A stretch of DNA of 50,298 nt from Escherichia phage JMPW2. A program made the position numbers and the translations under genes. The first letter of the stretch is position 1, and each line of letters starts with the position of its first letter. Below are positions 1,995 through 50,213 of this stretch, piece after piece. The notes beneath the pieces were generated by a model. That model saw nothing but the letters and a program-made list of their open reading frames with translations, ran no database searches and was not told the origin of the DNA. Location: the sequence record NC_041873.1. One strand, 5' to 3'.

Positions 1995-2101
1995 ACTTCA
2001 ATACAATTGCTTTATGGTCTGCCGTCTGGTTCTTCTGTATGGGTCATGTCATGGTTGGAATCGTAGTTATGCTGCTACTGTGTGCGGGAGCGTTCGAATG
2101 A
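1991..2101 (+). CDS. small hydrophobic membrane peptide (36 aa)
   Basis: Hand-translated MNFNTIALWSAVWFFCMGHVMVGIVVMLLLCAGAFE; ATGA overlap with upstream stop; below track size cutoff. Confidence 0.3.
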   Translation: MNFNTIALWSAVWFFCMGHVMVGIVVMLLLCAGAFE

Positions 2102-2271
2102 TGCGCATTCTGATTTGCATGATGGCGGCGGTCGCACTGGCTATCCTGGTAGTGTCCGGCTGCGGAGAGGCCAAAGAGCGATGCCATGAAACCGGAAACC
2201 AGGTGACTACTTTCGTGATGGTTGGCAACGTATTGCTACCAATCACATCAAATGAAATCACTTGCGAATAG
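2098..2271 (+). CDS. small putative lipoprotein
   Basis: Internal start MMRILICMMAAVALAILVVSGC gives signal peptide with lipobox-like VSGC; within track ORF 2014..2271. Confidence 0.4.
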   Translation: MMRILICMMAAVALAILVVSGCGEAKERCHETGNQVTTFVMVGNVLLPITSNEITCE

Positions 2272-3817: not shown

Positions 3818-3839
3818 CAACCAATCAGAGGAATCAGCT

Positions 3840-4048
3840 ATGGCTACACGACTCACTCAGTAGCAGATTTACGACAAGGCCTCACGCCTTCGTGAATCAC
3901 TTCGAGGTCTGACACCAAACGACCGCATTGAGATTATCGGGCACGCATTGCACGAACTCGCGTCTCAAGACGTAATCTATCATTCATGCGGAAATAAATT
4001 CTGGAACGTGACATTCGAGGTAAAGAAAGATGAGCAAAACTCATAAGT
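3840..4048 (+). pseudogene. hypothetical gene with in-frame TAG at 3861..3863 (codon 8)
   Basis: ATG 3840 preceded by box, stem-loop and CCAATCAGAGGAAT leader; after the TAG the frame stays open 61 codons with no ATG, ending 18 nt into the next gene. Confidence 0.4.
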
Positions 4049-4317
4049 TAAAAATCGCCCCTGTACATTTCATTGGTGTAATGAACGGAACCAAAACGGC
4101 AGAGTTCCGCATCAATGACCGAAACTTCCAATCTGGCGATATCCTGGAGCTATGCGAGTTCGATCGAGATGAGTTTACCGGGTGGGAAGTTCACGCCAGG
4201 GTATCCGATGTTACCGATGTGACGCCATACATCGATCGCGGGTATGACGAGCAAGAATGCGACTTCACGCAATACGTGATGTTATCAATCAAGCCTTACA
4301 GGAAGGTTAGACCATGA
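4030..4317 (+). CDS. ASCH/PUA-like (DUF3850-like) protein
   Basis: N-terminus HKLKIAPVHF...GTKTAEFRINDRNFQSGDIL resembles the ASCH-type pattern; from memory, not searched. Confidence 0.45.
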   Translation: MSKTHKLKIAPVHFIGVMNGTKTAEFRINDRNFQSGDILELCEFDRDEFTGWEVHARVSDVTDVTPYIDRGYDEQECDFTQYVMLSIKPYRKVRP

Positions 4318-4952
4318 AATTTGAATGTGTGCTTAGTAACGGATCTGGATTTAAGTACGGCAAAATCTACGAAGGCGCTCGCGTCAATTGCAACAGCTTC
4401 GTTATCACGGATGAGCGCGGTAGAAATGTTAACGTTGTCCGGCGTCACGAATACCAGGAAATTTTCCTGCCGTACGGCAATAGTTCAAAATACATCTTCC
4501 ATCGAATCGTTGATGGTGTTAAATTTAAAGACGTAATCGAAGCAATCAACCAACTTCATAATAAAGAGGTAAAATTTATGAAATTCGAATGCATCAGCGA
4601 TAACACCAAAAAATTTACTGTTGGCAAAATTTACGATGTTCCCTCTGAGCACGCTAAGCACACGGCTGTAATTACCGACGACACGGGCCGCCACCGCATT
4701 GCAACCGTAACGCACAACGGTGAAGGTCTTCGCTGGAATAGCGGCGGCACTAAGTTCGCAACGTTCGGCAAGAAGCGCAAGCGCACTTTCTGCGTCAAGG
4801 GCAATGTTGCGGCGAACAAGACCCACAACGACAAGGCGTCACAAGTTGACCGCAAGCCAGCATTGAAGTTTGAAGAGAAAGCGGATTTATCCGGCCTGGC
4901 TGTTGCGCTTGTTCTCCTGGTAGCTTCGATTTCGCTGATGTTCATCATGTAA
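4314..4952 (+). CDS. two-repeat small-beta-domain protein with C-terminal TM helix
   Basis: Internal duplication MKFECVLSNGSGFKYGKIYEG / MKFECISDNTKKFTVGKIYDV; hydrophobic C-terminus LAVALVLLVASISLMFIM. Confidence 0.6.
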   Translation: MKFECVLSNGSGFKYGKIYEGARVNCNSFVITDERGRNVNVVRRHEYQEIFLPYGNSSKYIFHRIVDGVKFKDVIEAINQLHNKEVKFMKFECISDNTKKFTVGKIYDVPSEHAKHTAVITDDTGRHRIATVTHNGEGLRWNSGGTKFATFGKKRKRTFCVKGNVAANKTHNDKASQVDRKPALKFEEKADLSGLAVALVLLVASISLMFIM

Positions 4953-30458: not shown

Positions 30459-30480
30459 GCCCCTTTCGGGGCTTTTCTTT
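30459..30480. terminator. terminator between convergent genes
   Basis: gcccc tttc ggggc hairpin with T-rich tail on + strand. Confidence 0.55.
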
Positions 30481-30707
30481 TACATCGAGCAATCGTGAGA
30501 CTTGAAGTTATTCTCTGATACGTAATGGAATGAGAATGGATACCCAGCACGTAACAGCATCTCATCACCGCGCATCTTTGATCCAAAAACGGAAACCGAG
30601 TACTCTGCGTCACCTGATTCATAAATCGCAGTACAAGTGCGCTCAGGCATCGATGAGCAACCAGTCAGGATGAATGCCGCAGCAATAATGGTGATTAATT
30701 TTTTCAT
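30480..30707 (-). CDS. small lipoprotein, Cor/Llp-like superinfection-exclusion candidate
   Basis: Signal peptide MKKLITIIAAAFILTGCSS with lipobox LTGC; sits after tail genes on opposite strand. Confidence 0.5.
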   Translation of the reverse strand: MKKLITIIAAAFILTGCSSMPERTCTAIYESGDAEYSVSVFGSKMRGDEMLLRAGYPFSFHYVSENNFKSHDCSM

Positions 30708-33531: not shown

Positions 33532-33560
33532 CAAAAATCCCCGCAATGCGGGGATTTTAT
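33531..33560. terminator. bidirectional terminator
   Basis: ccccgc aat gcgggg hairpin flanked by A run and T run between convergent genes. Confidence 0.65.
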
Positions 33561-35116
33561 CATTTGGACTTCAACATTTTTATCTCTTCTTGTAACTCTT
33601 CAACTTTCTTTATTGTATCCTGTAAAGCTCTCATAGTGTCAAGCAATAAAGGAGTTGTATCAAGCTCAAGCCTTTCAACTTTTGGCCCGTTTAGCTCGTG
33701 GCTCTCATACACCCTTCTCTTAACATATAGATTGTCGATCTCTTCTATCTCCTGAGCTATAACACCTCTCCTTACCCTTTCTTGCTCATCATCGTTAAAT
33801 ATAAAGTTCCTAAATCTCATTGATTTTATGTTGTTGTATGCAATGCTTGATTCATCATCCTTTATGCCGTGCTTTATATTTCTGTCAGATGCCGGAACCT
33901 GTTGGAAACTTCCAGCCCCTTGCGGTCCAGCGTAAGATATTTGCCCTGAAGCCATAAACCTGAAATGCATTTGCAGACCAATATTGCCTGCTCCATCCCT
34001 ATCTTGAGTGCCTACTGATATTTGTGCCCTGGGCCATTCAGGATTACCCGTAGTCATCATGCCAAATGCTACGCCGCCAACGTATCCCTGACCTCTGGTG
34101 TCACACGATCCAGCAATAAGTGATTGATAGTTTTCAGCACCACTATCAGCGGTGTAAGCATTACCCTGGAAGCATGAAGCAGACCACATCTGGTTGTAAC
34201 CCATAGATGTTTTCTGGCATAAAAACTGATTAGCTCTGAATCTATTGTTAGTCTCGAAGTAGTTTGCCCCCTCATAAAATAATAAAGCCCCAGCATAACC
34301 ATTATCGCTACGTTCTTTTCTGACGTAAATACCTGGCGTAGATATTCCATCAGGTGACATAATCATCAATGATGACAATATGGACTGACTACCCCAGCTA
34401 GAACCGTCCCATGAATTCCTTCCTGCACCTATAGCGCCAGTGGTGTTAATAGTAAGAAAGTTAACAGCATCATTTTCACCTAACCCAATATTTTTTCTTG
34501 ACTCTTTTTTATCCTCAAGACCAGCTAGATTGCCATCCTTAGTTAAAAGATTTTCAGCGTCAACGCTATTTGCTGCGTCCTTTGCTTCCTGCGCACTGAC
34601 TGCTGCTGCATCTTTTGCGCTAACCGCTGCATCGCGTGCAGCGTTGGCTGCGTCACGCGCTAATTCAGCCTGATTTTGCGCAGCTTGAGAATCAGATTTC
34701 GCCTGATTCACATCAGCAACTATTTGCTCAAGTTTATTCATATCAGCAACTATTTGCTCAAGTTTATTCATATCAAGCTGATTTATCAGGTCTATAGCTG
34801 CCGCAATCTCAGTCTCTTTGCTTTGATAGTATCGAAGAGTCTCGGCGACGTTTTGAGCTAATCCGTTAACGGTTAGAGAGTCATTAAGTAGGATCACATA
34901 CTTACCGTCATCGGCAGTCTGACCATCAGTAGAGATAGCCTTTAATTCTGTATCACTAACGATATCGCTAATCACAGCTAGCTTAATTGGTTGCTCAAGG
35001 AACACGATAGTTGCACCTACGCGAATAAGAGCAAGCTGGTCTTTCCATTTTGTATCGGTTCCGTGAACCGTTCCGTCTGCATCCATTGATGCAGTACCGC
35101 GTCGATATAAAGCCAT
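33560..35116 (-). CDS. tail fibre protein with C-terminal intramolecular chaperone-like domain
   Basis: Fibre-like N-terminus MALYRRGTASMDADGTVHGTDTKW; Ala/Gln coiled region; C-terminal coiled-coil ...LQDTIKKVEELQEEIKMLKSK. Confidence 0.7.
   Translation of the reverse strand: MALYRRGTASMDADGTVHGTDTKWKDQLALIRVGATIVFLEQPIKLAVISDIVSDTELKAISTDGQTADDGKYVILLNDSLTVNGLAQNVAETLRYYQSKETEIAAAIDLINQLDMNKLEQIVADMNKLEQIVADVNQAKSDSQAAQNQAELARDAANAARDAAVSAKDAAAVSAQEAKDAANSVDAENLLTKDGNLAGLEDKKESRKNIGLGENDAVNFLTINTTGAIGAGRNSWDGSSWGSQSILSSLMIMSPDGISTPGIYVRKERSDNGYAGALLFYEGANYFETNNRFRANQFLCQKTSMGYNQMWSASCFQGNAYTADSGAENYQSLIAGSCDTRGQGYVGGVAFGMMTTGNPEWPRAQISVGTQDRDGAGNIGLQMHFRFMASGQISYAGPQGAGSFQQVPASDRNIKHGIKDDESSIAYNNIKSMRFRNFIFNDDEQERVRRGVIAQEIEEIDNLYVKRRVYESHELNGPKVERLELDTTPLLLDTMRALQDTIKKVEELQEEIKMLKSK
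34712..34771 (-). repeat. perfect 30-bp in-frame tandem duplication inside tail fibre gene
   Basis: atcagcaactatttgctcaagtttattcat x2, encoding MNKLEQIVAD twice. Confidence 0.95.
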
Positions 35117-40496: not shown

Positions 40497-40746
40497 ACGA
40501 GAGGTTTGGGATCACGCGAAGGAGTGCGGAATCTCAGACGATATAGCACTAATAGCAAAATATTTCGATATAAAGGATGTTAGCATCATCTCAAACGGAA
40601 AGATTTCATTTATGGAAGATATGCCGAGAAAAATGCATAGAGTTCCAGCCACTCCATCACTTGAGTTTTACCGCGAAGAGGGAAAGAGAATTGAGCGAGA
40701 AAGAAAATCCACAAAAAACGGCAAGTCTTCCCGGCTTAAATATTAA
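40474..40746 (+). CDS. hypothetical protein
   Basis: Track ORF; starts in an A7 tract overlapping upstream gene. Confidence 0.35.
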   Translation: MLIKKQGKREVWDHAKECGISDDIALIAKYFDIKDVSIISNGKISFMEDMPRKMHRVPATPSLEFYREEGKRIERERKSTKNGKSSRLKY

Positions 40747-40978
40747 TGCGGACGAATACCAGGCAATATGGATCGGGAAAAAGCAGGTTAAGCAAATCCC
40801 TTTCTCTGACTGGTTGCCACCTGACTTTGTTAATGTGCTTTGCACTATCGGTATTGAGCAGGAGTTGCATATAGGTTACTACTCACCTGGCCGAAACAGT
40901 ATGATGCTTGAGGTTGACGGAAAGCTCGTTGAGTTTAAATCTTCAGATCTAGGATTCTGGTTAAAGGCTGTGGCATGA
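40577..40978 (+). CDS. hypothetical protein (start uncertain, possibly TTG near 40692)
   Basis: Track ORF overlapping 40474..40746 in another frame. Confidence 0.35.
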   Translation: MLASSQTERFHLWKICREKCIEFQPLHHLSFTAKRERELSEKENPQKTASLPGLNINADEYQAIWIGKKQVKQIPFSDWLPPDFVNVLCTIGIEQELHIGYYSPGRNSMMLEVDGKLVEFKSSDLGFWLKAVA

Positions 40979-41056
40979 AACTTTATTTTGCTGTAGTATT
41001 AACACCGCTAATTTCATTTTCAGTAATGTATTTCATTATCATGTAAGGATTAAAAT

Positions 41057-42190
41057 ATGTCACAAGCTAAAATCACTACCGAGCAACTTATCGAAGAGCG
41101 CATGAGCGGCCTGACACTTCGCGAGATCGCGGAAAAGTACGGTATGCACATTCGCACTGTCGAGGCGCGTCACGCAAAACTTGCAAAAGAAGGCCACTTC
41201 CACGGCAACGAGCATGTTGCTAAGATGGTTCCGGAAGGCTTCATGGTAAAAGGCACGTCAACCATGATTGACGCGGAAGGTAACGAGAAGATTCGTTGGG
41301 TTAAGACATCAGTTGATAATGAGCGCCTTGAGGTTCTAATGGAAAAAGCGCGTGAAGCATTCTGTTCAGAGTTGCCTAAGGCTATTCCATCTGAATCACC
41401 TGACGTTAGTTTTGATGAAGACACGCTTGCGATGTATCCAGTTTTTGATTTGCACATTGGTGCTCTTGCTCACAAACATGAGTGCGGCGAAAACTACGAC
41501 ACAGCGACAGCAGAGAAGGTTATGAATGGGTTCTTTGACTACGCTGTAGATAAGGCGCCAAACTCAAAGAATGCCGTATTGGTATTGGGTGGCGATTTCC
41601 TACATTACGACTCTTTGGAGTCTAAGACTCCAGCGTCAGGCCATTACTTAGATTCTGACAGTCGTTACGCTAAGCTTGTTTATGTCGCAATCCGATCAGT
41701 ACGACGCGCAGTCTCTCGAATGCTGGAGAAGCACCAAGTTATTGATATTAAAGCAATAAGTGGGAATCACGACGAATCAGGGATGGTTTGGTTGCGCGCT
41801 GCGCTTGCTGCATTTTATGAAGATGAGCCGCGCGTAAATGTTGATGTTAGCCCTGCCGCAATGATGATGACCAGCTTTGGTAAGACCCTTATTGGATACA
41901 CTCACGGGCATCAAATGCGAAAAGCAGATACTCGACTAAGTGTTATGGCAACTGATTTTCGTAAGTTGTTTGGTCAAAGTGATTACGTTTACACGCATAG
42001 CGGTCACTGGCACAGTCAAAAGATTACAGAAACAAACTTGGGTATTGATGAGGTTCATGGTCAGCTTGGAAGTCCTGACGCATACTCTGCCAATGGCGGT
42101 TGGAGGTCTCAGCGTCAAGCTGCTGTGATTGTCTATCACAAGGAATTTGGTGAGGTTGGACGATTCATTTGTCGACCTGAAATGTTCTAA
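41057..42190 (+). CDS. HTH domain fused to calcineurin-like metallophosphoesterase
   Basis: N-terminal LTLREIAEKYGMHIRTVEAR; phosphoesterase motifs DLHIG, GGDFLH, GNHDE, HSGHWH. Confidence 0.7.
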   Translation: MSQAKITTEQLIEERMSGLTLREIAEKYGMHIRTVEARHAKLAKEGHFHGNEHVAKMVPEGFMVKGTSTMIDAEGNEKIRWVKTSVDNERLEVLMEKAREAFCSELPKAIPSESPDVSFDEDTLAMYPVFDLHIGALAHKHECGENYDTATAEKVMNGFFDYAVDKAPNSKNAVLVLGGDFLHYDSLESKTPASGHYLDSDSRYAKLVYVAIRSVRRAVSRMLEKHQVIDIKAISGNHDESGMVWLRAALAAFYEDEPRVNVDVSPAAMMMTSFGKTLIGYTHGHQMRKADTRLSVMATDFRKLFGQSDYVYTHSGHWHSQKITETNLGIDEVHGQLGSPDAYSANGGWRSQRQAAVIVYHKEFGEVGRFICRPEMF

Positions 42191-42230
42191 ATAGCACCTT
42201 TTGTTAAAACAGTACCCGCGAAAGCGGGTA
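42189..42230 (+). promoter_or_regulatory. palindromic box plus stem-loop
   Basis: aaatagcaccttttgttaaaac; hairpin tacccgcg...cgcgggta then TATTAT. Confidence 0.55.
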
Positions 42231-42262
42231 TTATTGTTTTATAGAAACAAGAGGAGATTGCA

Positions 42263-42745
42263 ATGAACTGGCACGAGCATTACGAATATAGGGATGGTGT
42301 TCTATATCACAAGGTAAAGCCATGCAGAAGGCATGATGTAAATATTGGGGATGTTGCTGGAAGGGTTGCCAAAAACGGCTATCACTATGTTGTTCACAAG
42401 AACAGGCCGTATAAGAGATCTCGAGTTATATGGGAGATGTTTAATGGTGAGATACCAGATGGTTTTGTTATAGATCATCTGAATCACAATGCCACCGATG
42501 ATAGGATCGATAACCTTGAGTGTAAGCCAAGAAGAGAGAATATGGTTAATGTTAAGTTAAGGATTGATAGCACGACCGGAGTAACTGGCGTATCAAGAAA
42601 GAGGGATAACAAGTGGAGGGCGTACATAACAATTATGGGTAAGCAGAAGTGCAAGAGCTTTGACACGTTTGAGGAAGCTTGCGCGCAGAGGATTGAATGG
42701 TCAGTAACTCATGATTTTCACCCAAATCACGGTGGAACATACTAA
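42263..42745 (+). CDS. HNH homing endonuclease with AP2-like domain
   Basis: DHLNHNATDDRIDNLECKPRRENMVN plus TTGVTGVSRKRDNKWRAYI. Confidence 0.8.
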   Translation: MNWHEHYEYRDGVLYHKVKPCRRHDVNIGDVAGRVAKNGYHYVVHKNRPYKRSRVIWEMFNGEIPDGFVIDHLNHNATDDRIDNLECKPRRENMVNVKLRIDSTTGVTGVSRKRDNKWRAYITIMGKQKCKSFDTFEEACAQRIEWSVTHDFHPNHGGTY

Positions 42746-42790
42746 TAGCACCTTTTACCTAACCCGCGCCACAGAAGTGCGGCATAGTAA
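42744..42790 (+). promoter_or_regulatory. box variant plus stem-loop
   Basis: aatagcaccttttacctaac; GC stem then CATAGT. Confidence 0.4.
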
Positions 42791-42817
42791 CCACATCGAA
42801 AACAGAGATGCTATATC

Positions 42818-42994
42818 ATGAAGATAGTCAAGTGCATCCGAAATGACTCCAAAACACTTCCATTCCGTGTAAATCAGATCTATAGTGTTGGTTATGATTT
42901 CGGTGGGGGATTATTTGAGATTTACGACGGGCGAGGTTCAGCAATCCAGACTCCTCTGAACGGTCACTACCTGGAATTTATTGAGATAGATTAA
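42818..42994 (+). CDS. small-beta-domain family protein (58 aa)
   Basis: Hand-translated MKIVKCIRNDSKTLPFRVNQIYSVGYDFGGGLFEIYDGRGSAIQ...; below track cutoff. Confidence 0.45.
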   Translation: MKIVKCIRNDSKTLPFRVNQIYSVGYDFGGGLFEIYDGRGSAIQTPLNGHYLEFIEID

Positions 42995-43112
42995 CAATAG
43001 CATTCATCACCTTACAGGCTGGCATGATTTACATGCTGGCCTTTTTGCGTTGTGTCAAATAAATTTGAAGGTTAAAATCGACTCACTTGTTCAAAAAATA
43101 TATGGTGAGATT

Positions 43113-43328
43113 ATGAAAGAGTTTTTAACGGCTGCTACGTCAAGCACTGGCGGTGCTTCGTTGGTAGGGGCGGCGACAGGGCAACTTTATATTGCTGGCG
43201 CTACATTCATTTGCTTTCTGCTTTTTGGTGCCTGGGGAGCGTACTGGAAGTATCGTGATAGCAAGGCAATTCAGGAAGCGTTAAACGATGGCGATCTAAA
43301 TAAGGCGCTTAAGATCAGGGGGAGATAA
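43113..43328 (+). CDS. holin
   Basis: About 71 aa with hydrophobic segments and charged C-terminus, directly upstream of endolysin. Confidence 0.55.
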
Positions 43329-43816
43329 TGAGTTTAAAAAATAACGTTATAGGCGCATCAATCGGGGCCGCTTTGACGTTGACACCTACCCTACTGGAAC
43401 GGATCGAAGGTATAGAATACGAGGTTTATTACGATATCGCCGGAGTCCCTACCGTATGCAGCGGAATAACCGGGCCTGACGTCATACCTGGTAAGAAATA
43501 CACTAAGCGAGAATGCGATGCATTGCTGATAAAACATATCGGCGTCGCTCAGCGATACGTTGACAAGAAGGTTAAGGTTGACATTCCGGTAACTATGCGC
43601 GCATCACTGTATAGCTTCACTTTCAACGTTGGGACTGGCGCTTTCGGATCGTCTACAATGCTTAAGCTAATCAATCAGCGCAAGCACAAAGAAGCGTGTA
43701 ATCAGTTATGGCGATGGGTATACTACTACAACCCAAAAACCAAAAAGCGCGAAGTGTCGAGAGGGATCAAGAATCGGCGCGCTGAAGAATACGCATATTG
43801 CGTTAAGGAACTATAA
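43328..43816 (+). CDS. SAR endolysin (GH24 lysozyme)
   Basis: Signal-anchor-like [17 protein letters not shown]; catalytic spacing E-x8-D-x5-T ([16 protein letters not shown]). Confidence 0.75.
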
Positions 43817-44217
43817 TGAAACTTAAGAAAACGTGCATTGCAATTACGGTTGCTGTTGGTGTGATTTCTCTATCCGGTTGTTCGACGGCATCTGCTCTGA
43901 GTGGTTTACTTTCTGACTCCCCGGATGTTACGGCGCAGGTTGGCGCTGAGAACACAAAACAACTAGCAGGAGTAACAGCAAAGGCGGATGATAAGCGAGA
44001 AGTGAAGGTGAGTGATTCAAATATTGGCAAGATTGACTCATCCGTCAAGAAGTCCGTGGAGGTGTCAACCATTCAGGCCAACACGGTTAACGCTGAAAGC
44101 ATCACAGTAACCAAATCTGGAAGCTGGTACGATCCTGTGGTTTGCTGGATTCTAGTTTTTATTGTCCTGTTGCTGTTTTATTTTTTAATTCGTAAGCACG
44201 AAAAAAAGGAGGCGTAA
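43816..44217 (+). CDS. unimolecular spanin (lipoprotein signal plus C-terminal TM)
   Basis: N-terminal lipobox LSGC and C-terminal helix VVCWILVFIVLLLFYFLI, the T1 gp11 architecture. Confidence 0.65.
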   Translation: MKLKKTCIAITVAVGVISLSGCSTASALSGLLSDSPDVTAQVGAENTKQLAGVTAKADDKREVKVSDSNIGKIDSSVKKSVEVSTIQANTVNAESITVTKSGSWYDPVVCWILVFIVLLLFYFLIRKHEKKEA

Positions 44218-44230
44218 GCCTCCTTTCTTA
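44200..44230. terminator. bidirectional terminator
   Basis: aggaggc gtaa gcctcct hairpin flanked by A7 and T-rich runs. Confidence 0.6.
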
Positions 44231-44339
44231 TTTGTACCTTTTGACGTGAAGTAGCAACTCCCCATCCTGATCGCAAAGATTGTGCTCACCGTCGTTATTG
44301 GCCCTCATCGAAGTGAGCAGTAGGCTAAGTAATCCTTGC

Positions 44340-44747
44340 TCAAATTCTTCTTTCGTAAGCTGGAGCCTTGCGCACAATTCGACGTTCCGATCTATCAATG
44401 TTTCTACGTTCGCCAAACAAGTCTTCATCACTCATTTCTCCAATGTGCATCATTTCCCACGTATATCGATTGTTGTAGCCATCAATACACATCAGCTTCA
44501 TCATTACCGGGCGCTTGATCTTTCCCTTGCACCAGTAAAATCCACCCTTGCAATCAAGATAACCCTCAGTCACGCAGCGTGCGCAAAACTCCTTAGACAG
44601 CGCGCTTGTAAATTCACGGCGAGTCATTCCGGCGGCCTTAGCAAATCGCTCACTTTCCTTGTGGGCGTATATAAATTTCGCTATGTGCTGTCGAGTGTAT
44701 TTGTCGTAACCTTCGCAGAACCTGAACAGATCTAAAAGAAGAAGCAT
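44340..44747 (-). CDS. hypothetical protein
   Basis: Track ORF; ends 112 nt before terminator, with a second open frame (44228..44431) continuing to it. Confidence 0.45.
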   Translation of the reverse strand: MLLLLDLFRFCEGYDKYTRQHIAKFIYAHKESERFAKAAGMTRREFTSALSKEFCARCVTEGYLDCKGGFYWCKGKIKRPVMMKLMCIDGYNNRYTWEMMHIGEMSDEDLFGERRNIDRSERRIVRKAPAYERRI

Positions 44748-44751
44748 ATTA

Positions 44752-46320
44752 TTAACCCATCAGTCGAGGATTGATGAAAACAATATCATCAATCCGGCAA
44801 GTGTAGTTCATCTCTTCGAGCGTGATCAGCAGGCTGTCGATTCGCTCAGCTACTTTTTGTTGACCGTTGAACGGCGTAACGTTACGGCACTTTGCAACAA
44901 TGCTATGAATAGGTGCGCGACCTTTGTTCTTCTTTGCGATCTCAGTGATAACATCAATCAGCTTACGAGATTCAGCCTCATCACCAGCATACCCGGCGGC
45001 GCTGGCAGACGACAGATAGGTTCTGGAAAGCTCATTGAAAATCATGATCGCTTCCTGCATTGTTTCAAGGTCAATCTCACGGTTGGAACGGTTCGGTGAT
45101 TCACCATCCCAGTTCTTGATTGTGTGAAGAACTGAAGCAATGCGCAAAGCGTGCTTATCGAACTTGCCGAGATGACCGCGTAGCATTGAGTGAGAGTATT
45201 TGCCCCCGGCTGCGAAATCCGGCTCCATAGCCTGGCGAGCAAGGTTTAATTCACGCATAGCATTACGGCTTACAGAGAGAACAACGTTGTCCTCCTTCAT
45301 AATGTTGTGCACAAGTCGATAATATTTACTCACCAATCCTCGATCGACTTCCTTATACAGTGCATCACCATTTTCATCGCAAAGAATACGAGTGCCTAAA
45401 AGAGGTTCCTCGCGAACCAATAGGAAACGCTCAGATACACCGATACCGCGCTGGCCTGCGTCCATGATACCCTTGATTGTTTCATCCTGCGCAATGACGC
45501 AGATCGAACCGACCGGGCAAAGAGATAAGTTATTGTCCTGATTTGAACGCGCAACCTCCATATGGTTTTTATCCCACGCCTTGAGGATAAGCTCGCTGTT
45601 TGATTTCTTATCAGAACCGCCATAAGTCAGGCCAAGCAATGTATTTATTGCCGTTGCCTCATCAGAGATTACGGAAAAGTGGCCTTGAACAGCAGCTACT
45701 TTCGCAAGACCTTCCGGTGTAGGATCTGATACCGCGAAAACAATATCAGCCATCTTCTTGATCTTCTCTTCCAGTTTTTCCTTGTCCTCGTACAGCGCCG
45801 CCGTCGTGTTACCCTTCGGATCGTTTTTGATTTCCTTCTCGATCTGACGTAGCTGACTGGTTAAACGGATACGTTCCTTTTTGCGCTCTTCATTCAGTCT
45901 CTGAATCTCTGCGCGCATAGGTGTAATCGCCGCTGAGTTAATCGCGGATTTACCTGTTGATGGTGGCTGGCTAATCACCATATAAAGAGCGGTCGGTTGT
46001 TCTTCTCCGTGATATTGCACCCAAAACTTCCCTAGCATCGCGGCTGAGATGCACCCAATGAAATGAGCGTACGCAGACGAAACAGGAAACTGTACAGACT
46101 CAGCTTTTGCTTTTGCATATTCGAATACCAGGTTATCGCCACCTAACGAAATCAGCGGGAACTTATCGTTTCCACTGTTGATATCGATCGGGTCTTGCCA
46201 AAACGAAACTGAATCCCCGTAGCTGTTTTCACGAATTGCGATCGCCACCGGATTAACTCCAGTGCTATTTGCGATCTCAATAATCTGTTGGTAATTCAGT
46301 TTTGGCTTAATATTAAACAT
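44752..46320 (-). CDS. P-loop NTPase (DUF3987-like, replication-associated)
   Basis: Walker A-like PPSTGKS; start at internal ATG (MFNIKP) with SD aaggag. Confidence 0.55.
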   Translation of the reverse strand: MFNIKPKLNYQQIIEIANSTGVNPVAIAIRENSYGDSVSFWQDPIDINSGNDKFPLISLGGDNLVFEYAKAKAESVQFPVSSAYAHFIGCISAAMLGKFWVQYHGEEQPTALYMVISQPPSTGKSAINSAAITPMRAEIQRLNEERKKERIRLTSQLRQIEKEIKNDPKGNTTAALYEDKEKLEEKIKKMADIVFAVSDPTPEGLAKVAAVQGHFSVISDEATAINTLLGLTYGGSDKKSNSELILKAWDKNHMEVARSNQDNNLSLCPVGSICVIAQDETIKGIMDAGQRGIGVSERFLLVREEPLLGTRILCDENGDALYKEVDRGLVSKYYRLVHNIMKEDNVVLSVSRNAMRELNLARQAMEPDFAAGGKYSHSMLRGHLGKFDKHALRIASVLHTIKNWDGESPNRSNREIDLETMQEAIMIFNELSRTYLSSASAAGYAGDEAESRKLIDVITEIAKKNKGRAPIHSIVAKCRNVTPFNGQQKVAERIDSLLITLEEMNYTCRIDDIVFINPRLMG

Positions 46321-46859
46321 CACAATAAACTCCTTAGTTGACGGCGTGAATGATACACCGTCAATGGTACACGCGTTTTGCAAAAAGTGCTATTCGATCC
46401 GTGATTCTCATGAAAACCGTATAGCCTTTCCGCTTCCTTCCTTGCTTTAGCCGCTGCATCCAGCGTCATGAAGGTCCCTAAGTGTTTTGTCTTTTTATTT
46501 ATGGTTATGTTTGCCGTGTATCTATTTGTTTTTTTATTCCAATACACTCCCATAACTCCTGTGTTTGATGACACTACTCCCTTGTTTCTTAGGTTGTCTT
46601 GCCTAGTTACTAGCCTGAGATTCTCAATTCTGTTATCGTCTCTTTCATGGTTTATGTGGTCTACATCCATTCCTTCTGGTATGTTTCCGTAGTGTATTTT
46701 CCATACTATTCGATGGGCGTATTCAAATACACCTCCTGGAAAACATATTGACCGATAACCTTTTTTATTAACAGTTCCGGCAAGTAGATTTCGTCTTCTT
46801 CCGATTCTCCACTCTTTCCAGTACAGTCTCCCGCTAACGTATTTCAGTTCATCTTTCAT
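46320..46859 (-). CDS. HNH homing endonuclease with AP2-like domain
   Basis: DVDHINHERDDNRIENLRLVTRQDN plus SNTGVMGVYWNKKTNRYTA; third paralog. Confidence 0.75.
   Translation of the reverse strand: MKDELKYVSGRLYWKEWRIGRRRNLLAGTVNKKGYRSICFPGGVFEYAHRIVWKIHYGNIPEGMDVDHINHERDDNRIENLRLVTRQDNLRNKGVVSSNTGVMGVYWNKKTNRYTANITINKKTKHLGTFMTLDAAAKARKEAERLYGFHENHGSNSTFCKTRVPLTVYHSRRQLRSLL
46339..46393 (-). promoter_or_regulatory. palindromic box plus stem-loop (minus strand)
   Basis: Minus-strand atagcactttttgcaaaac, hairpin gacggtg...cgccgtc with TGTATCAT, SD taaggag. Confidence 0.55.
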
Positions 46860-47272
46860 AAGTATTTACTCTCAAAGGTTGTGCCGTCTGCGATACTAAA
46901 ACCAACCTCTTCGCGGAATAAGGTCCAGCGGCAACCGTCCTCATCAAAGATGTAACCAGCTACGCCTCCAAGAGCGCGACCGCTTTCTACCTGGTAACGC
47001 TTTCCAACCTTGAATGATTTTTTCATTGGGTTGCGATGGTCAAGTCCGGTGCACTTGAGCGTCTTTGTTTTCAACTCGGTGAACTTCGCGAAGAAGATTT
47101 CATCAGATCCGTGAATATGTAATTCATCATGCTTTTCAAGTTTTAAATACTTCCCGCATTTTAACTTTACTTCACGAGTATCATCATAGCGCTCACGACC
47201 TTTATACAGATTGTTTACTTCGAATCCTGTGATTTTGTCTGCTGAAGTGCATTTAAGTTTAATGGTTTTCAT
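46856..47272 (-). CDS. small-beta-domain family protein (two repeats)
   Basis: KLKCTSADKITGFEVNNLYKG and KTLKCTGLDHRNPMKKSFKVGKRYQV repeats. Confidence 0.5.
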   Translation of the reverse strand: MKTIKLKCTSADKITGFEVNNLYKGRERYDDTREVKLKCGKYLKLEKHDELHIHGSDEIFFAKFTELKTKTLKCTGLDHRNPMKKSFKVGKRYQVESGRALGGVAGYIFDEDGCRWTLFREEVGFSIADGTTFESKYL

Positions 47273-48930: not shown

Positions 48931-48982
48931 GATGTGATGACTATACCAGCCACCCCGGGTGCGCGCTTAACAAAAGTGCTAT
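48931..48982 (-). promoter_or_regulatory. palindromic box plus -10-like element (minus strand)
   Basis: Minus-strand atagcacttttgttaa then TGgTATAGT. Confidence 0.5.
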
Positions 48983-49168
48983 TTAGAATTTTACATCTTC
49001 AACAAGCTCGACAAATTTGTACCCCAGGCGATAGGAGTCGCCGAACAACAATAACCCCATAAATTCATCTTTGGTTATCGACTCCTTACCAACTGTTCTA
49101 AGCTCTCCGTTGTGAATAACAGTATCGCCGATCTTGATTTCTGATTTATGCACTAATTTCGTTTTCAT
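48983..49168 (-). CDS. hypothetical small protein
   Basis: Track ORF; weak RBS. Confidence 0.4.
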   Translation of the reverse strand: MKTKLVHKSEIKIGDTVIHNGELRTVGKESITKDEFMGLLLFGDSYRLGYKFVELVEDVKF

Positions 49169-49183
49169 TTGTTAGCCAGTTAA

Positions 49184-49369
49184 TTAAAAGAATGCTACAT
49201 AGTTTGCAATGCCTTTTGCGTCGTCGTTAGGCATCGCATTGACAGCCGGGTCGTAACCCGCTTCTACCTTCTGCTTTGCAGATTCTTCGTTGTATCCCCA
49301 AATAACCAGGATTTTAACTACGTTTTCTTTGTTCAGGACTTTAAGGTCTTTAGTGATGCGACGTGCCAT
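49184..49369 (-). CDS. hypothetical small protein
   Basis: Internal ATG (MARRITK) with SD gaggaaaaa; module upstream. Confidence 0.45.
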   Translation of the reverse strand: MARRITKDLKVLNKENVVKILVIWGYNEESAKQKVEAGYDPAVNAMPNDDAKGIANYVAFF

Positions 49370-49390
49370 TTTGTTTTTCCTCAATCTCGT

Positions 49391-49446
49391 TTCGATGAGG
49401 TAATTATGCCAAATCACGCAGATCGAGTTTTAACAAAAAATGCTAT
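49391..49446 (-). promoter_or_regulatory. palindromic box plus stem-loop (minus strand)
   Basis: Minus-strand atagcattttttgttaaaac then gatttggcataattacctcatcg. Confidence 0.5.
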
Positions 49447-49447
49447 T

Positions 49448-50134
49448 TTAGATAGCTTTAAAAAATCCCCTGGGTGATAGAGATCGTATCAGCTTCGTTT
49501 TGGCAGACTTGCCGCCCAGCTTGTTTTGCTGTGCAGAGTACCCGTCAGGCAGGCTTACAGGTTTTCTCTCGGGCATGACAAAATCGTCAGAGGTCCACAG
49601 ACAAGTTTTCTTCGGGTAAGCATCGCGCGGCGCAATATACATCGGGAACCAGGGGTGCGCGTCATCCTCAGGAAGATAGCCGCCGTACTCCCAGGGATTG
49701 AAGGAGTGATTTGGTTTTCTCCACGCAGACGACAGGACGCTCACCGGATTCTCAATGATGTAAGTCACACCAAGCTCCTTACCAATGTTCGCAGCTATCC
49801 GAGCGGTGGCAACAGCCTTCTCCTGGAATAACGGATCACGTTCACGCTTACTGGCAAAGTGACGAGCACCACTAACAGCCAGGTCAGTGCATGGAGGGAA
49901 AGCCATAATAAAATCCGGCTTGCCATACACACCCGCGATCGCGTCACGTTCGAACTTCTCATCAATAAAGACGTTCACATACTCAATGTTCGGATGCTCC
50001 ACCCTGGCGTTGTACTTTGCATAATCTCCGTGATCGGCCCCGTCAAAGTTGAAGCACATCACCTTATGACCTTGCTTTGCCAGTTCATGACCAGCAAGAC
50101 CGGAACCGTCGAATAGTGACCAAATTAACTTCAT
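49448..50134 (-). CDS. C5-cytosine DNA methyltransferase (Dcm-like)
   Basis: Motif I LFDGSG, motif IV FPPCTDLAVSG, ENP(V)-type motif YIIENPVS; conserved leader upstream. Confidence 0.7.
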   Translation of the reverse strand: MKLIWSLFDGSGLAGHELAKQGHKVMCFNFDGADHGDYAKYNARVEHPNIEYVNVFIDEKFERDAIAGVYGKPDFIMAFPPCTDLAVSGARHFASKRERDPLFQEKAVATARIAANIGKELGVTYIIENPVSVLSSAWRKPNHSFNPWEYGGYLPEDDAHPWFPMYIAPRDAYPKKTCLWTSDDFVMPERKPVSLPDGYSAQQNKLGGKSAKTKLIRSLSPRGFFKAI

Positions 50135-50152
50135 TGCTGCTTCCTCTTCTGA

Positions 50153-50213
50153 TTGGTTGATGGCCAGAACCATACCCCGACAACCTGATCGAGTCGTTAG
50201 CAAAAAATGCTAT
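50153..50213 (-). promoter_or_regulatory. palindromic box plus leader upstream of dcm-like gene
   Basis: Minus-strand atagcattttttgctaac then CAACCAATCAGAAGAGGAAG and ATG 50134. Confidence 0.5.

Follow-up and report, generated by a model that had tools for sequence, protein, structure and literature searches.

Layout of the lysis cassette and its identity with that of phage T1

The window analysed here is the whole 50,298-nucleotide sequence of Escherichia phage JMPW2 (NC_041873.1), in which positions 43113..44217 hold three + strand genes encoding, in this order, a holin, a GH24 endolysin and a spanin. The span opens with the A of the holin ATG (43113) and closes with the final base of the spanin TAA stop (44217). 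The span that a first-pass annotation, made from the letters of the sequence, had given for a lysis cassette at this place proved exact to the base; its text, however, dealt with the endolysin and the spanin, second and third in the span, and omitted the holin. The genes, the signals within them and the expression signals around them are as follows.

43016..43042, + strand: Rho-independent terminator hairpin, an 11-bp stem followed by a T-run (scan; fold -16.9 kcal/mol)
43050..43078, + strand: candidate weak sigma-70-like promoter, TTGTGT-17 nt-TAAAAT (inferred by eye, 8/12 matches)
43104..43109, + strand: Shine-Dalgarno-like GGTGAG, 3 nt 5' of the holin ATG (T1 has an annotated ribosome-binding site at the equivalent position)
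43113..43328, + strand: holin, 71 aa, identical to T1 gp13 (AAP49986; annotated pinholin class 2); phrog_2877 holin, E 1.9e-38, matched end to end
43328..43816, + strand: GH24 endolysin, 162 aa, identical to T1 gp12 (AAP49987); PF00959, phrog_7 endolysin
43346..43396, + strand: predicted signal-anchor-release (SAR) segment, endolysin codons 7-23; weakly hydrophobic, outside PF00959
43406..43453, + strand: catalytic triad codons E27 (43406..43408), D36 (43433..43435) and T42 (43451..43453), pattern E-x8-D-x5-T
43816..44217, + strand: unimolecular spanin (u-spanin), 133 aa, identical to T1 gp11 (AAP49988); phrog_1804 Rz-like spanin, E 9.7e-45
43816..43881, + strand: lipoprotein signal peptide (codons 1-21) and lipobox LSGC of the spanin (sequence inspection, alignment)
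44137..44193, + strand: C-terminal transmembrane helix of the spanin, codons 108-126, VVCWILVFIVLLLFYFLIR (Kyte-Doolittle mean 3.16)
44205..44226, both strands: bidirectional terminator hairpin overlapping the spanin stop (fold -15.3 kcal/mol on the + strand, -17.0 kcal/mol on the - strand)

All three proteins show 100% amino acid identity to their T1 counterparts gp13, gp12 and gp11. A base-by-base comparison of the DNA at 43050..44260 with T1 (AY216660) revealed 1 difference in 1211 bp, a synonymous A/C exchange at 44154 within the spanin gene, which is the sole difference between the two cassettes. When the same stretch was searched by megablast against 50,697 phage records, four T1 records were retrieved at 99.7-99.9% identity, together with 59 further Tunavirus-like records at 80-95% identity. 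Gene order, TAATG overlaps, ribosome-binding sites, flanking terminators and proteins are all those of the T1 cassette. The curated annotation of T1 in AY216660 labels the matching genes (CPTT1_067-069) as pinholin class 2, SAR endolysin and u-spanin, its note on spanin function citing PMID 30135120, and these names agree with the earlier description of the locus as a lysis cassette with a SAR endolysin and a unimolecular spanin. At the protein level the cassette is the T1 system itself and not merely a system like that of T1; the earlier finding is correct, but the feature was already known.

Both gene junctions consist of a TAATG stop/start overlap, the endolysin ATG overlapping the holin stop and the spanin ATG overlapping the endolysin stop, and each of the three starts is preceded by a purine-rich Shine-Dalgarno-like motif. 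Upstream, the hairpin at 43016..43042 has an equivalent in T1 (42782..42811) that is annotated as a terminator, and it marks the upstream boundary of the cassette. A promoter scan ahead of the cassette at a threshold of 9/12 returned no + strand sigma-70-like site. At the downstream end, the hairpin at 44205..44226 lies between convergent transcription units and carries a long T-run on the - strand, the strand on which it is annotated in T1; because it also folds well on both strands, we regard it as a bidirectional terminator. In such an arrangement the TAATG overlaps would couple the translation of the three genes, and the terminator hairpins would bracket the unit.

The holin and the predicted SAR endolysin

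The holin contains two hydrophobic segments that abut one another. The first (residues ~10-29) is weakly hydrophobic and consists to 70% of G/A/S/T, while the second (residues ~25-46) is more hydrophobic, with a Kyte-Doolittle mean of up to 1.94, and is followed by a charged C-terminal tail rich in K, R, D and E. One transmembrane domain and two are not separable here by a hydropathy plot, and AY216660 describes the protein as having '1 transmembrane domain, N-out C-in'. Phage 21 S21 is likewise a small holin with two hydrophobic segments, the first of them rich in G/A/S/T. No similarity of the JMPW2 holin to the characterised pinholins is detectable, PHROG 2877 being its sole family match, and searches of Pfam and NCBIfam returned no family for it. 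The protein has a single Met, at position 1, and no dual-start motif, in which T1 and JMPW2 differ from TLS-type relatives, whose holin (MRDFLLM...) has a second Met for a dual-start antiholin. We rejected an upstream in-frame TTG at 43050 as the holin start, since no ribosome-binding site precedes it and the holin of T1 is annotated from the ATG. Judged by its sequence, the holin is compatible with the class II/pinholin topology that has been put forward for T1; pinholin behaviour of T1 gp13 is described as 'proposed' in the literature as well (PMC11447400).

For the endolysin, a signal-anchor-like N-terminus ahead of a GH24 catalytic triad had been claimed, and a domain search had been suggested as a check. 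In this search, Pfam PF00959 (Phage_lysozyme, GH24) covers residues 25-154 (E 6.9e-33, 114 bits against a cut-off of 22.3), and the N-terminal extension before the catalytic domain comprises 24 residues. An NCBIfam BgtA match (58.6 bits against a cut-off of 315) was discarded as reflecting only the shared lysozyme fold. Among solved structures, the closest relatives are RrrD (4zpu) and R21 of phage 21, the latter in a full-length (3hde) and an active form (3hdf); they align without gaps, and their triads coincide with that of the JMPW2 enzyme. The alignment with 3hde (E 2.5e-34, 48% identity over 129 residues) is ungapped from residue 11, and its offset of 8 places E27, D36 and T42 on R21 residues 35, 44 and 50, which we take to be the R21 catalytic triad. 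The two homologous enzymes thus share the register of the E/D/T triad, and both carry a Cys-free, weakly hydrophobic N-terminal extension. In the JMPW2 protein, the Kyte-Doolittle mean over residues 7-23 is 1.68; this stretch contains 53% Gly/Ala/Ser/Thr and no Cys, and is preceded by Lys4. The lack of Cys in this segment suggests regulation of the R21 type rather than the disulfide-based type of P1 Lyz. The hydrophobic N-terminus and the triad behind it were hence rightly identified, and the SAR character is assigned by homology to R21 together with these sequence features.

Some properties of the segment would also suit a different behaviour. Its hydrophobic core is short, comprising 17 residues with Pro20 among them, and its Kyte-Doolittle mean is borderline. 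On a crude summed Hessa-type scale its best 19-mer reaches +6.8, compared with +0.8 for the SAR domain of R21 and -3.7 for the best 19-mer of the spanin transmembrane helix, which makes the gp12 anchor shorter and much less hydrophobic than that of R21. In addition, the literature found on SAR behaviour of gp12 holds predictions and no direct experiment, its statements saying 'predicted' only, as in 'predicted SAR endolysin' (PMC11447400). The segment could accordingly be imagined to act as a mechanistically distinct variant, for instance by transient or peripheral association with the membrane, which we consider improbable. It might also not be a releasable anchor at all: were it too weakly hydrophobic for insertion into the membrane, gp12 would be a canonical endolysin of the cytoplasm that depends on a large-hole holin for its release, and were it a Sec signal peptide that is cleaved off, gp12 would be a free periplasmic enzyme. 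We consider this distinctly improbable, given that the segment lies outside PF00959 and, from residue 11 on, aligns position by position with the SAR region of R21, and that no A-x-A type cleavage motif was seen on inspection after a sufficiently long hydrophobic core. Furthermore, a similar G/A/S/T-rich, weakly hydrophobic N-terminal segment following a basic residue is kept, despite sequence divergence, in all seven tabulated Drexlerviridae homologues (7/7 for the E-x8-D-x5-T triad as well), the holin that accompanies gp12 is of the pinholin type, with 71 aa and two segments, and specialist curators have classed it as SAR. We therefore retain the prediction of a releasable signal anchor of the R21 type for gp12.

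The unimolecular spanin

The gene following the endolysin had been described as encoding an outer-membrane lipoprotein signal (LSGC) and a C-terminal transmembrane helix, and both are present. The protein begins with MKLKK, continues into a hydrophobic run and reaches the LSGC motif, in which Cys22 (codon TGT, 43879..43881) is the predicted acylation site, followed by Ser-Thr. According to the rule of the Lol pathway, lipoproteins without an Asp at position +2 of the lipidated Cys are sorted to the outer membrane. As the +2 residue of the spanin is Ser and the Asp inner-membrane retention signal is lacking, the outer membrane is its expected destination. At the opposite end, the helix at residues 108-126 is directly followed by the basic cytoplasmic tail RKHEKKEA, and there is no Cys between Cys22 and the transmembrane helix.

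As a check on how often such signals arise by chance, 813 start-codon/ORF combinations of at least 60 aa were scanned in the six frames of the window. Lipoprotein-signal-like N-termini occurred in 4 of them and C-terminal segments resembling a transmembrane domain in 11, and only the spanin ORF has both. The u-spanin is also the sole ORF with a lipoprotein signal within 43113..44217, and the idea that a further, Rz1-type spanin gene is embedded there was rejected. A match of the spanin to NCBIfam Firmicu_CTERM, at 19.5 bits against a cut-off of 50, is spurious and caused by the hydrophobic tail. For gp11, an inhibitory product made from an internal start has reportedly been found; in-frame internal starts in the spanin gene are GTG at codons 16, 63, 65, 81, 83 and 108 and TTG at codon 119, none of them with a clear Shine-Dalgarno sequence.

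A tblastn search with the spanin found relatives in 1159 phage records. From these, ten homologues were extracted that represent Tunavirinae, Tempevirinae, Braunvirinae, unclassified Klebsiella siphophages and three Autographiviridae. At 34-79% identity, 10/10 have retained the lipobox Cys, Ser or Ala as the +2 residue, the C-terminal transmembrane domain and a Cys-free periplasmic domain, while the remaining sequence diverges; L19, G21 and C22 do not vary across the alignment of 11 sequences. An AlphaFold model built with this alignment has a mean pLDDT of 54.7 and contains a helix at residues 105-132, with mean pLDDT values of 76-92 per 10-residue block over residues 101-130, as its only confident part. 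No confident fold was obtained for the periplasmic domain (pLDDT below 50 for residues 23-92 with 11 sequences), and the published prediction of beta-strands is neither supported nor contradicted by the model.

The earlier comparison with the one-component spanin architecture of T1 gp11 holds in the strictest sense, the two proteins being 100% identical. This identity compares with a published threshold for u-spanin families of 40% identity or more to a member, across 40% or more of the length (PMC6139136). T1 gp11, with the wild-type lipobox LSGC as well as a transmembrane domain at the C-terminus, is the prototype u-spanin (Kongari et al., 2018; PMC6139136). It complements the lysis defect of lambda RzRz1, as does a variant with the lipobox AWAC, and the T1gp11 family is the largest u-spanin family, its typical setting being a cassette with a pinholin and a SAR endolysin (PMC6139136). 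Work on the localisation of gp11 is summarised in reviews. According to the abstract of the primary paper on gp11, mutants without either membrane signal are reportedly non-functional, gp11-GFP is said to give puncta, and after depletion of peptidoglycan gp11 is said to cause lysis with neither a holin nor an endolysin present. The J Virol 2018 abstract reportedly states the opposite of what would speak against the assignment, namely an absence of globomycin-sensitive processing or palmitate labelling at Cys22, or function kept after C-terminal truncation.

The spanin performs the same job as Rz/Rz1 of phage lambda, in which the inner and outer membranes are linked through the peptidoglycan and the outer membrane is disrupted as the final step of lysis. 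In lambda this is achieved by an inner-membrane protein and a lipoprotein from an embedded gene, whereas in T1 and JMPW2 both anchors reside on one polypeptide. Phage 21 also differs in this respect, having a two-component Rz/Rz1 spanin in place of the u-spanin of T1 and JMPW2 (PMC6139136). The published survey of u-spanins detected no sequence similarity between u-spanins and o-spanins (PMC6139136). Unlike Rz/Rz1, the JMPW2 spanin has no periplasmic Cys, and the periplasmic domain of u-spanins is predicted in the literature to be rich in beta-structure rather than to form a coiled-coil as in the lambda system, a prediction that our AlphaFold model does not confirm.

That the 133-aa protein might resemble a spanin only outwardly and be an outer-membrane lipoprotein serving some other purpose, for example superinfection exclusion in the manner of Cor, is an extremely remote prospect: the window does contain other small lipoprotein-like ORFs, including a Cor homologue (30480..30707, - strand), and the periplasmic domain lacks a confident predicted fold, but the T1 protein, which has the identical sequence, complements the lysis defect of lambda RzRz1 (PMC6139136), a C-terminal transmembrane domain is not among the features of Cor-type lipoproteins, the gene is the last of the cassette and would be translationally coupled to the endolysin, and homologues adjoin an endolysin or a holin-endolysin pair, even where the gene order has changed, in 9/9 annotated loci (seven from Drexlerviridae or unclassified T1-like siphophages and two from Autographiviridae) and also in a tenth, unannotated record, the ORFs of which were read directly.

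Genomic setting and proposed course of lysis

About 47.1 of the 50.3 kb of JMPW2 align with T1, mostly at 91-96% identity, with one 1.4-kb segment at 80%. The segments without alignment to T1, either missing there or diverged beyond alignment, are 2272-2466, 3835-4565, 33559-34489, 34649-34802 and 48948-50155. Overall, ~47 of 50.3 kb are colinear with T1 at ~95% identity, corresponding to ~94% of the JMPW2 length, and the two genomes differ further in extra or replaced segments. The T1-like assignment proposed earlier was, if anything, understated.

The cassette is located in a block of ~6.5 kb (40639..47203) that contains only 2 differences from T1, at 44154 and about 45106, while its flanks have ~4-50 per 250 bp. 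Besides the lysis cassette, the block encompasses an exonuclease gene, an HTH gene, an ATPase gene and two HNH-AP2 endonuclease genes, the latter identified by domain match:

42263..42745, + strand: HNH_3 and AP2 endonuclease gene, T1 orf15
46320..46859, - strand: HNH_3 and AP2 endonuclease gene, T1 orf8

Among the 50,697 phage records, the gene at 42263..42745 has matches at >99% identity in no records other than the four of T1, with a further match at 80% in AugustePiccard, and it is missing from the equivalent site in phage JMPW1, an occurrence pattern typical of a mobile homing endonuclease. Because the block is near-identical to T1 and contains an HNH gene that is matched at >99% identity in T1 only and is missing in JMPW1, it is plausible, as judged from these comparisons, that 40639..47203 is a recent recombination tract from a T1 donor. 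Co-conversion around the homing endonuclease genes is possibly its cause.

Between the first of these endonuclease genes and the cassette lies a 58-aa ORF (42818..42994, + strand; T1 orf14) that matches DUF7244 (PF23896, E 9e-29). It is directly 5' of the cassette, separated from it by the terminator, and also adjoins the cassette in JMPW1 and vB_EcoS-12210III.

Several features elsewhere in the window concern its differences from T1. The right end (48948..50155) has no T1 match; an ORF there (49448..50203, - strand, 251 aa) belongs to phrog_757 DNA methyltransferase (E 6e-84) with no Pfam match and represents an extra methyltransferase relative to T1, which has only a Dam-type gene. The tail fibre ORF (33560..35116, - strand, 518 aa; phrog_1980) is mostly unmatched or ~81% identical to T1 (33559..34802), where T1 has a 2187-bp gene, and this difference likely represents a swap of a host-range module. 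In the early region, an insertion or replacement relative to T1 (3835..4565) is associated with the ORFs 4030..4317 (+ strand, 95 aa; phrog_986 'RNA-binding protein') and 4314..4952 (+ strand, 212 aa; phrog_10580, which has no assigned function), the second of which has a C-terminal hydrophobic tail. Lipoprotein-type signals were observed in ORF 2098..2271 (+ strand; VVSGC), which is T1 orf72 (hypothetical) and has no Pfam match, and in ORF 30480..30707 (- strand; LTGC), which has the position of the T1 gene for the superinfection-exclusion lipoprotein Cor.

In the database, 21 records labelled as Campylobacter phages, such as MG065685.1 ('UNVERIFIED: Campylobacter phage A112a'), contain a T1-like holin/SAR-endolysin/u-spanin cassette, the spanin being ~47% identical. 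These records are classified as Drexlerviridae, genus Hanrivervirus, which suggests a Campylobacter host label on an enterobacterial phage sequence.

The three proteins would be expected to act in three steps. Based on its topology and the paradigm of phage 21, the 71-aa holin would build up in the inner membrane and trigger at a set time, depolarising the membrane as a pinholin. By homology to R21, the GH24 endolysin would already have been exported by Sec, its weakly hydrophobic N-terminus holding it at the periplasmic face in an inactive state; upon collapse of the proton motive force the segment would leave the bilayer and the enzyme would refold, its E27/D36/T42 site then degrading the peptidoglycan. 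The spanin, lipidated at Cys22, would be positioned in the outer membrane with its C-terminal helix in the inner membrane, one polypeptide spanning the periplasm. Once the peptidoglycan mesh is gone, it would disrupt the outer membrane, most probably by fusion of the inner and outer membranes. The topology and function of the spanin in this last step are supported by experiments on the identical T1 protein; membrane fusion by u-spanins is a model by the statement of its own authors (PMC6139136).

The JMPW2 proteins display every testable feature by which membership of the T1gp11 u-spanin family and of the R21-type SAR endolysins is defined. Since they are identical to those of T1, and gp11 is the textbook prototype of the u-spanins, nothing new on lysis can be learned from the JMPW2 copy. 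The remaining gap concerns T1 itself: in the literature found, gp12 is still a SAR endolysin, and gp13 still a pinholin, by prediction. Should the N-terminal segment of gp12 act as a distinct variant after all, control of lysis timing by the T1 holin would differ from the pinholin/SAR paradigm of phage 21. The value of the locus lies in three correctly labelled genes and in the confirmation of the window as a Tunavirus, with little beyond annotation: JMPW2 is very probably a close relative of T1 in the genus Tunavirus that carries the three-step lysis cassette of T1 unchanged.
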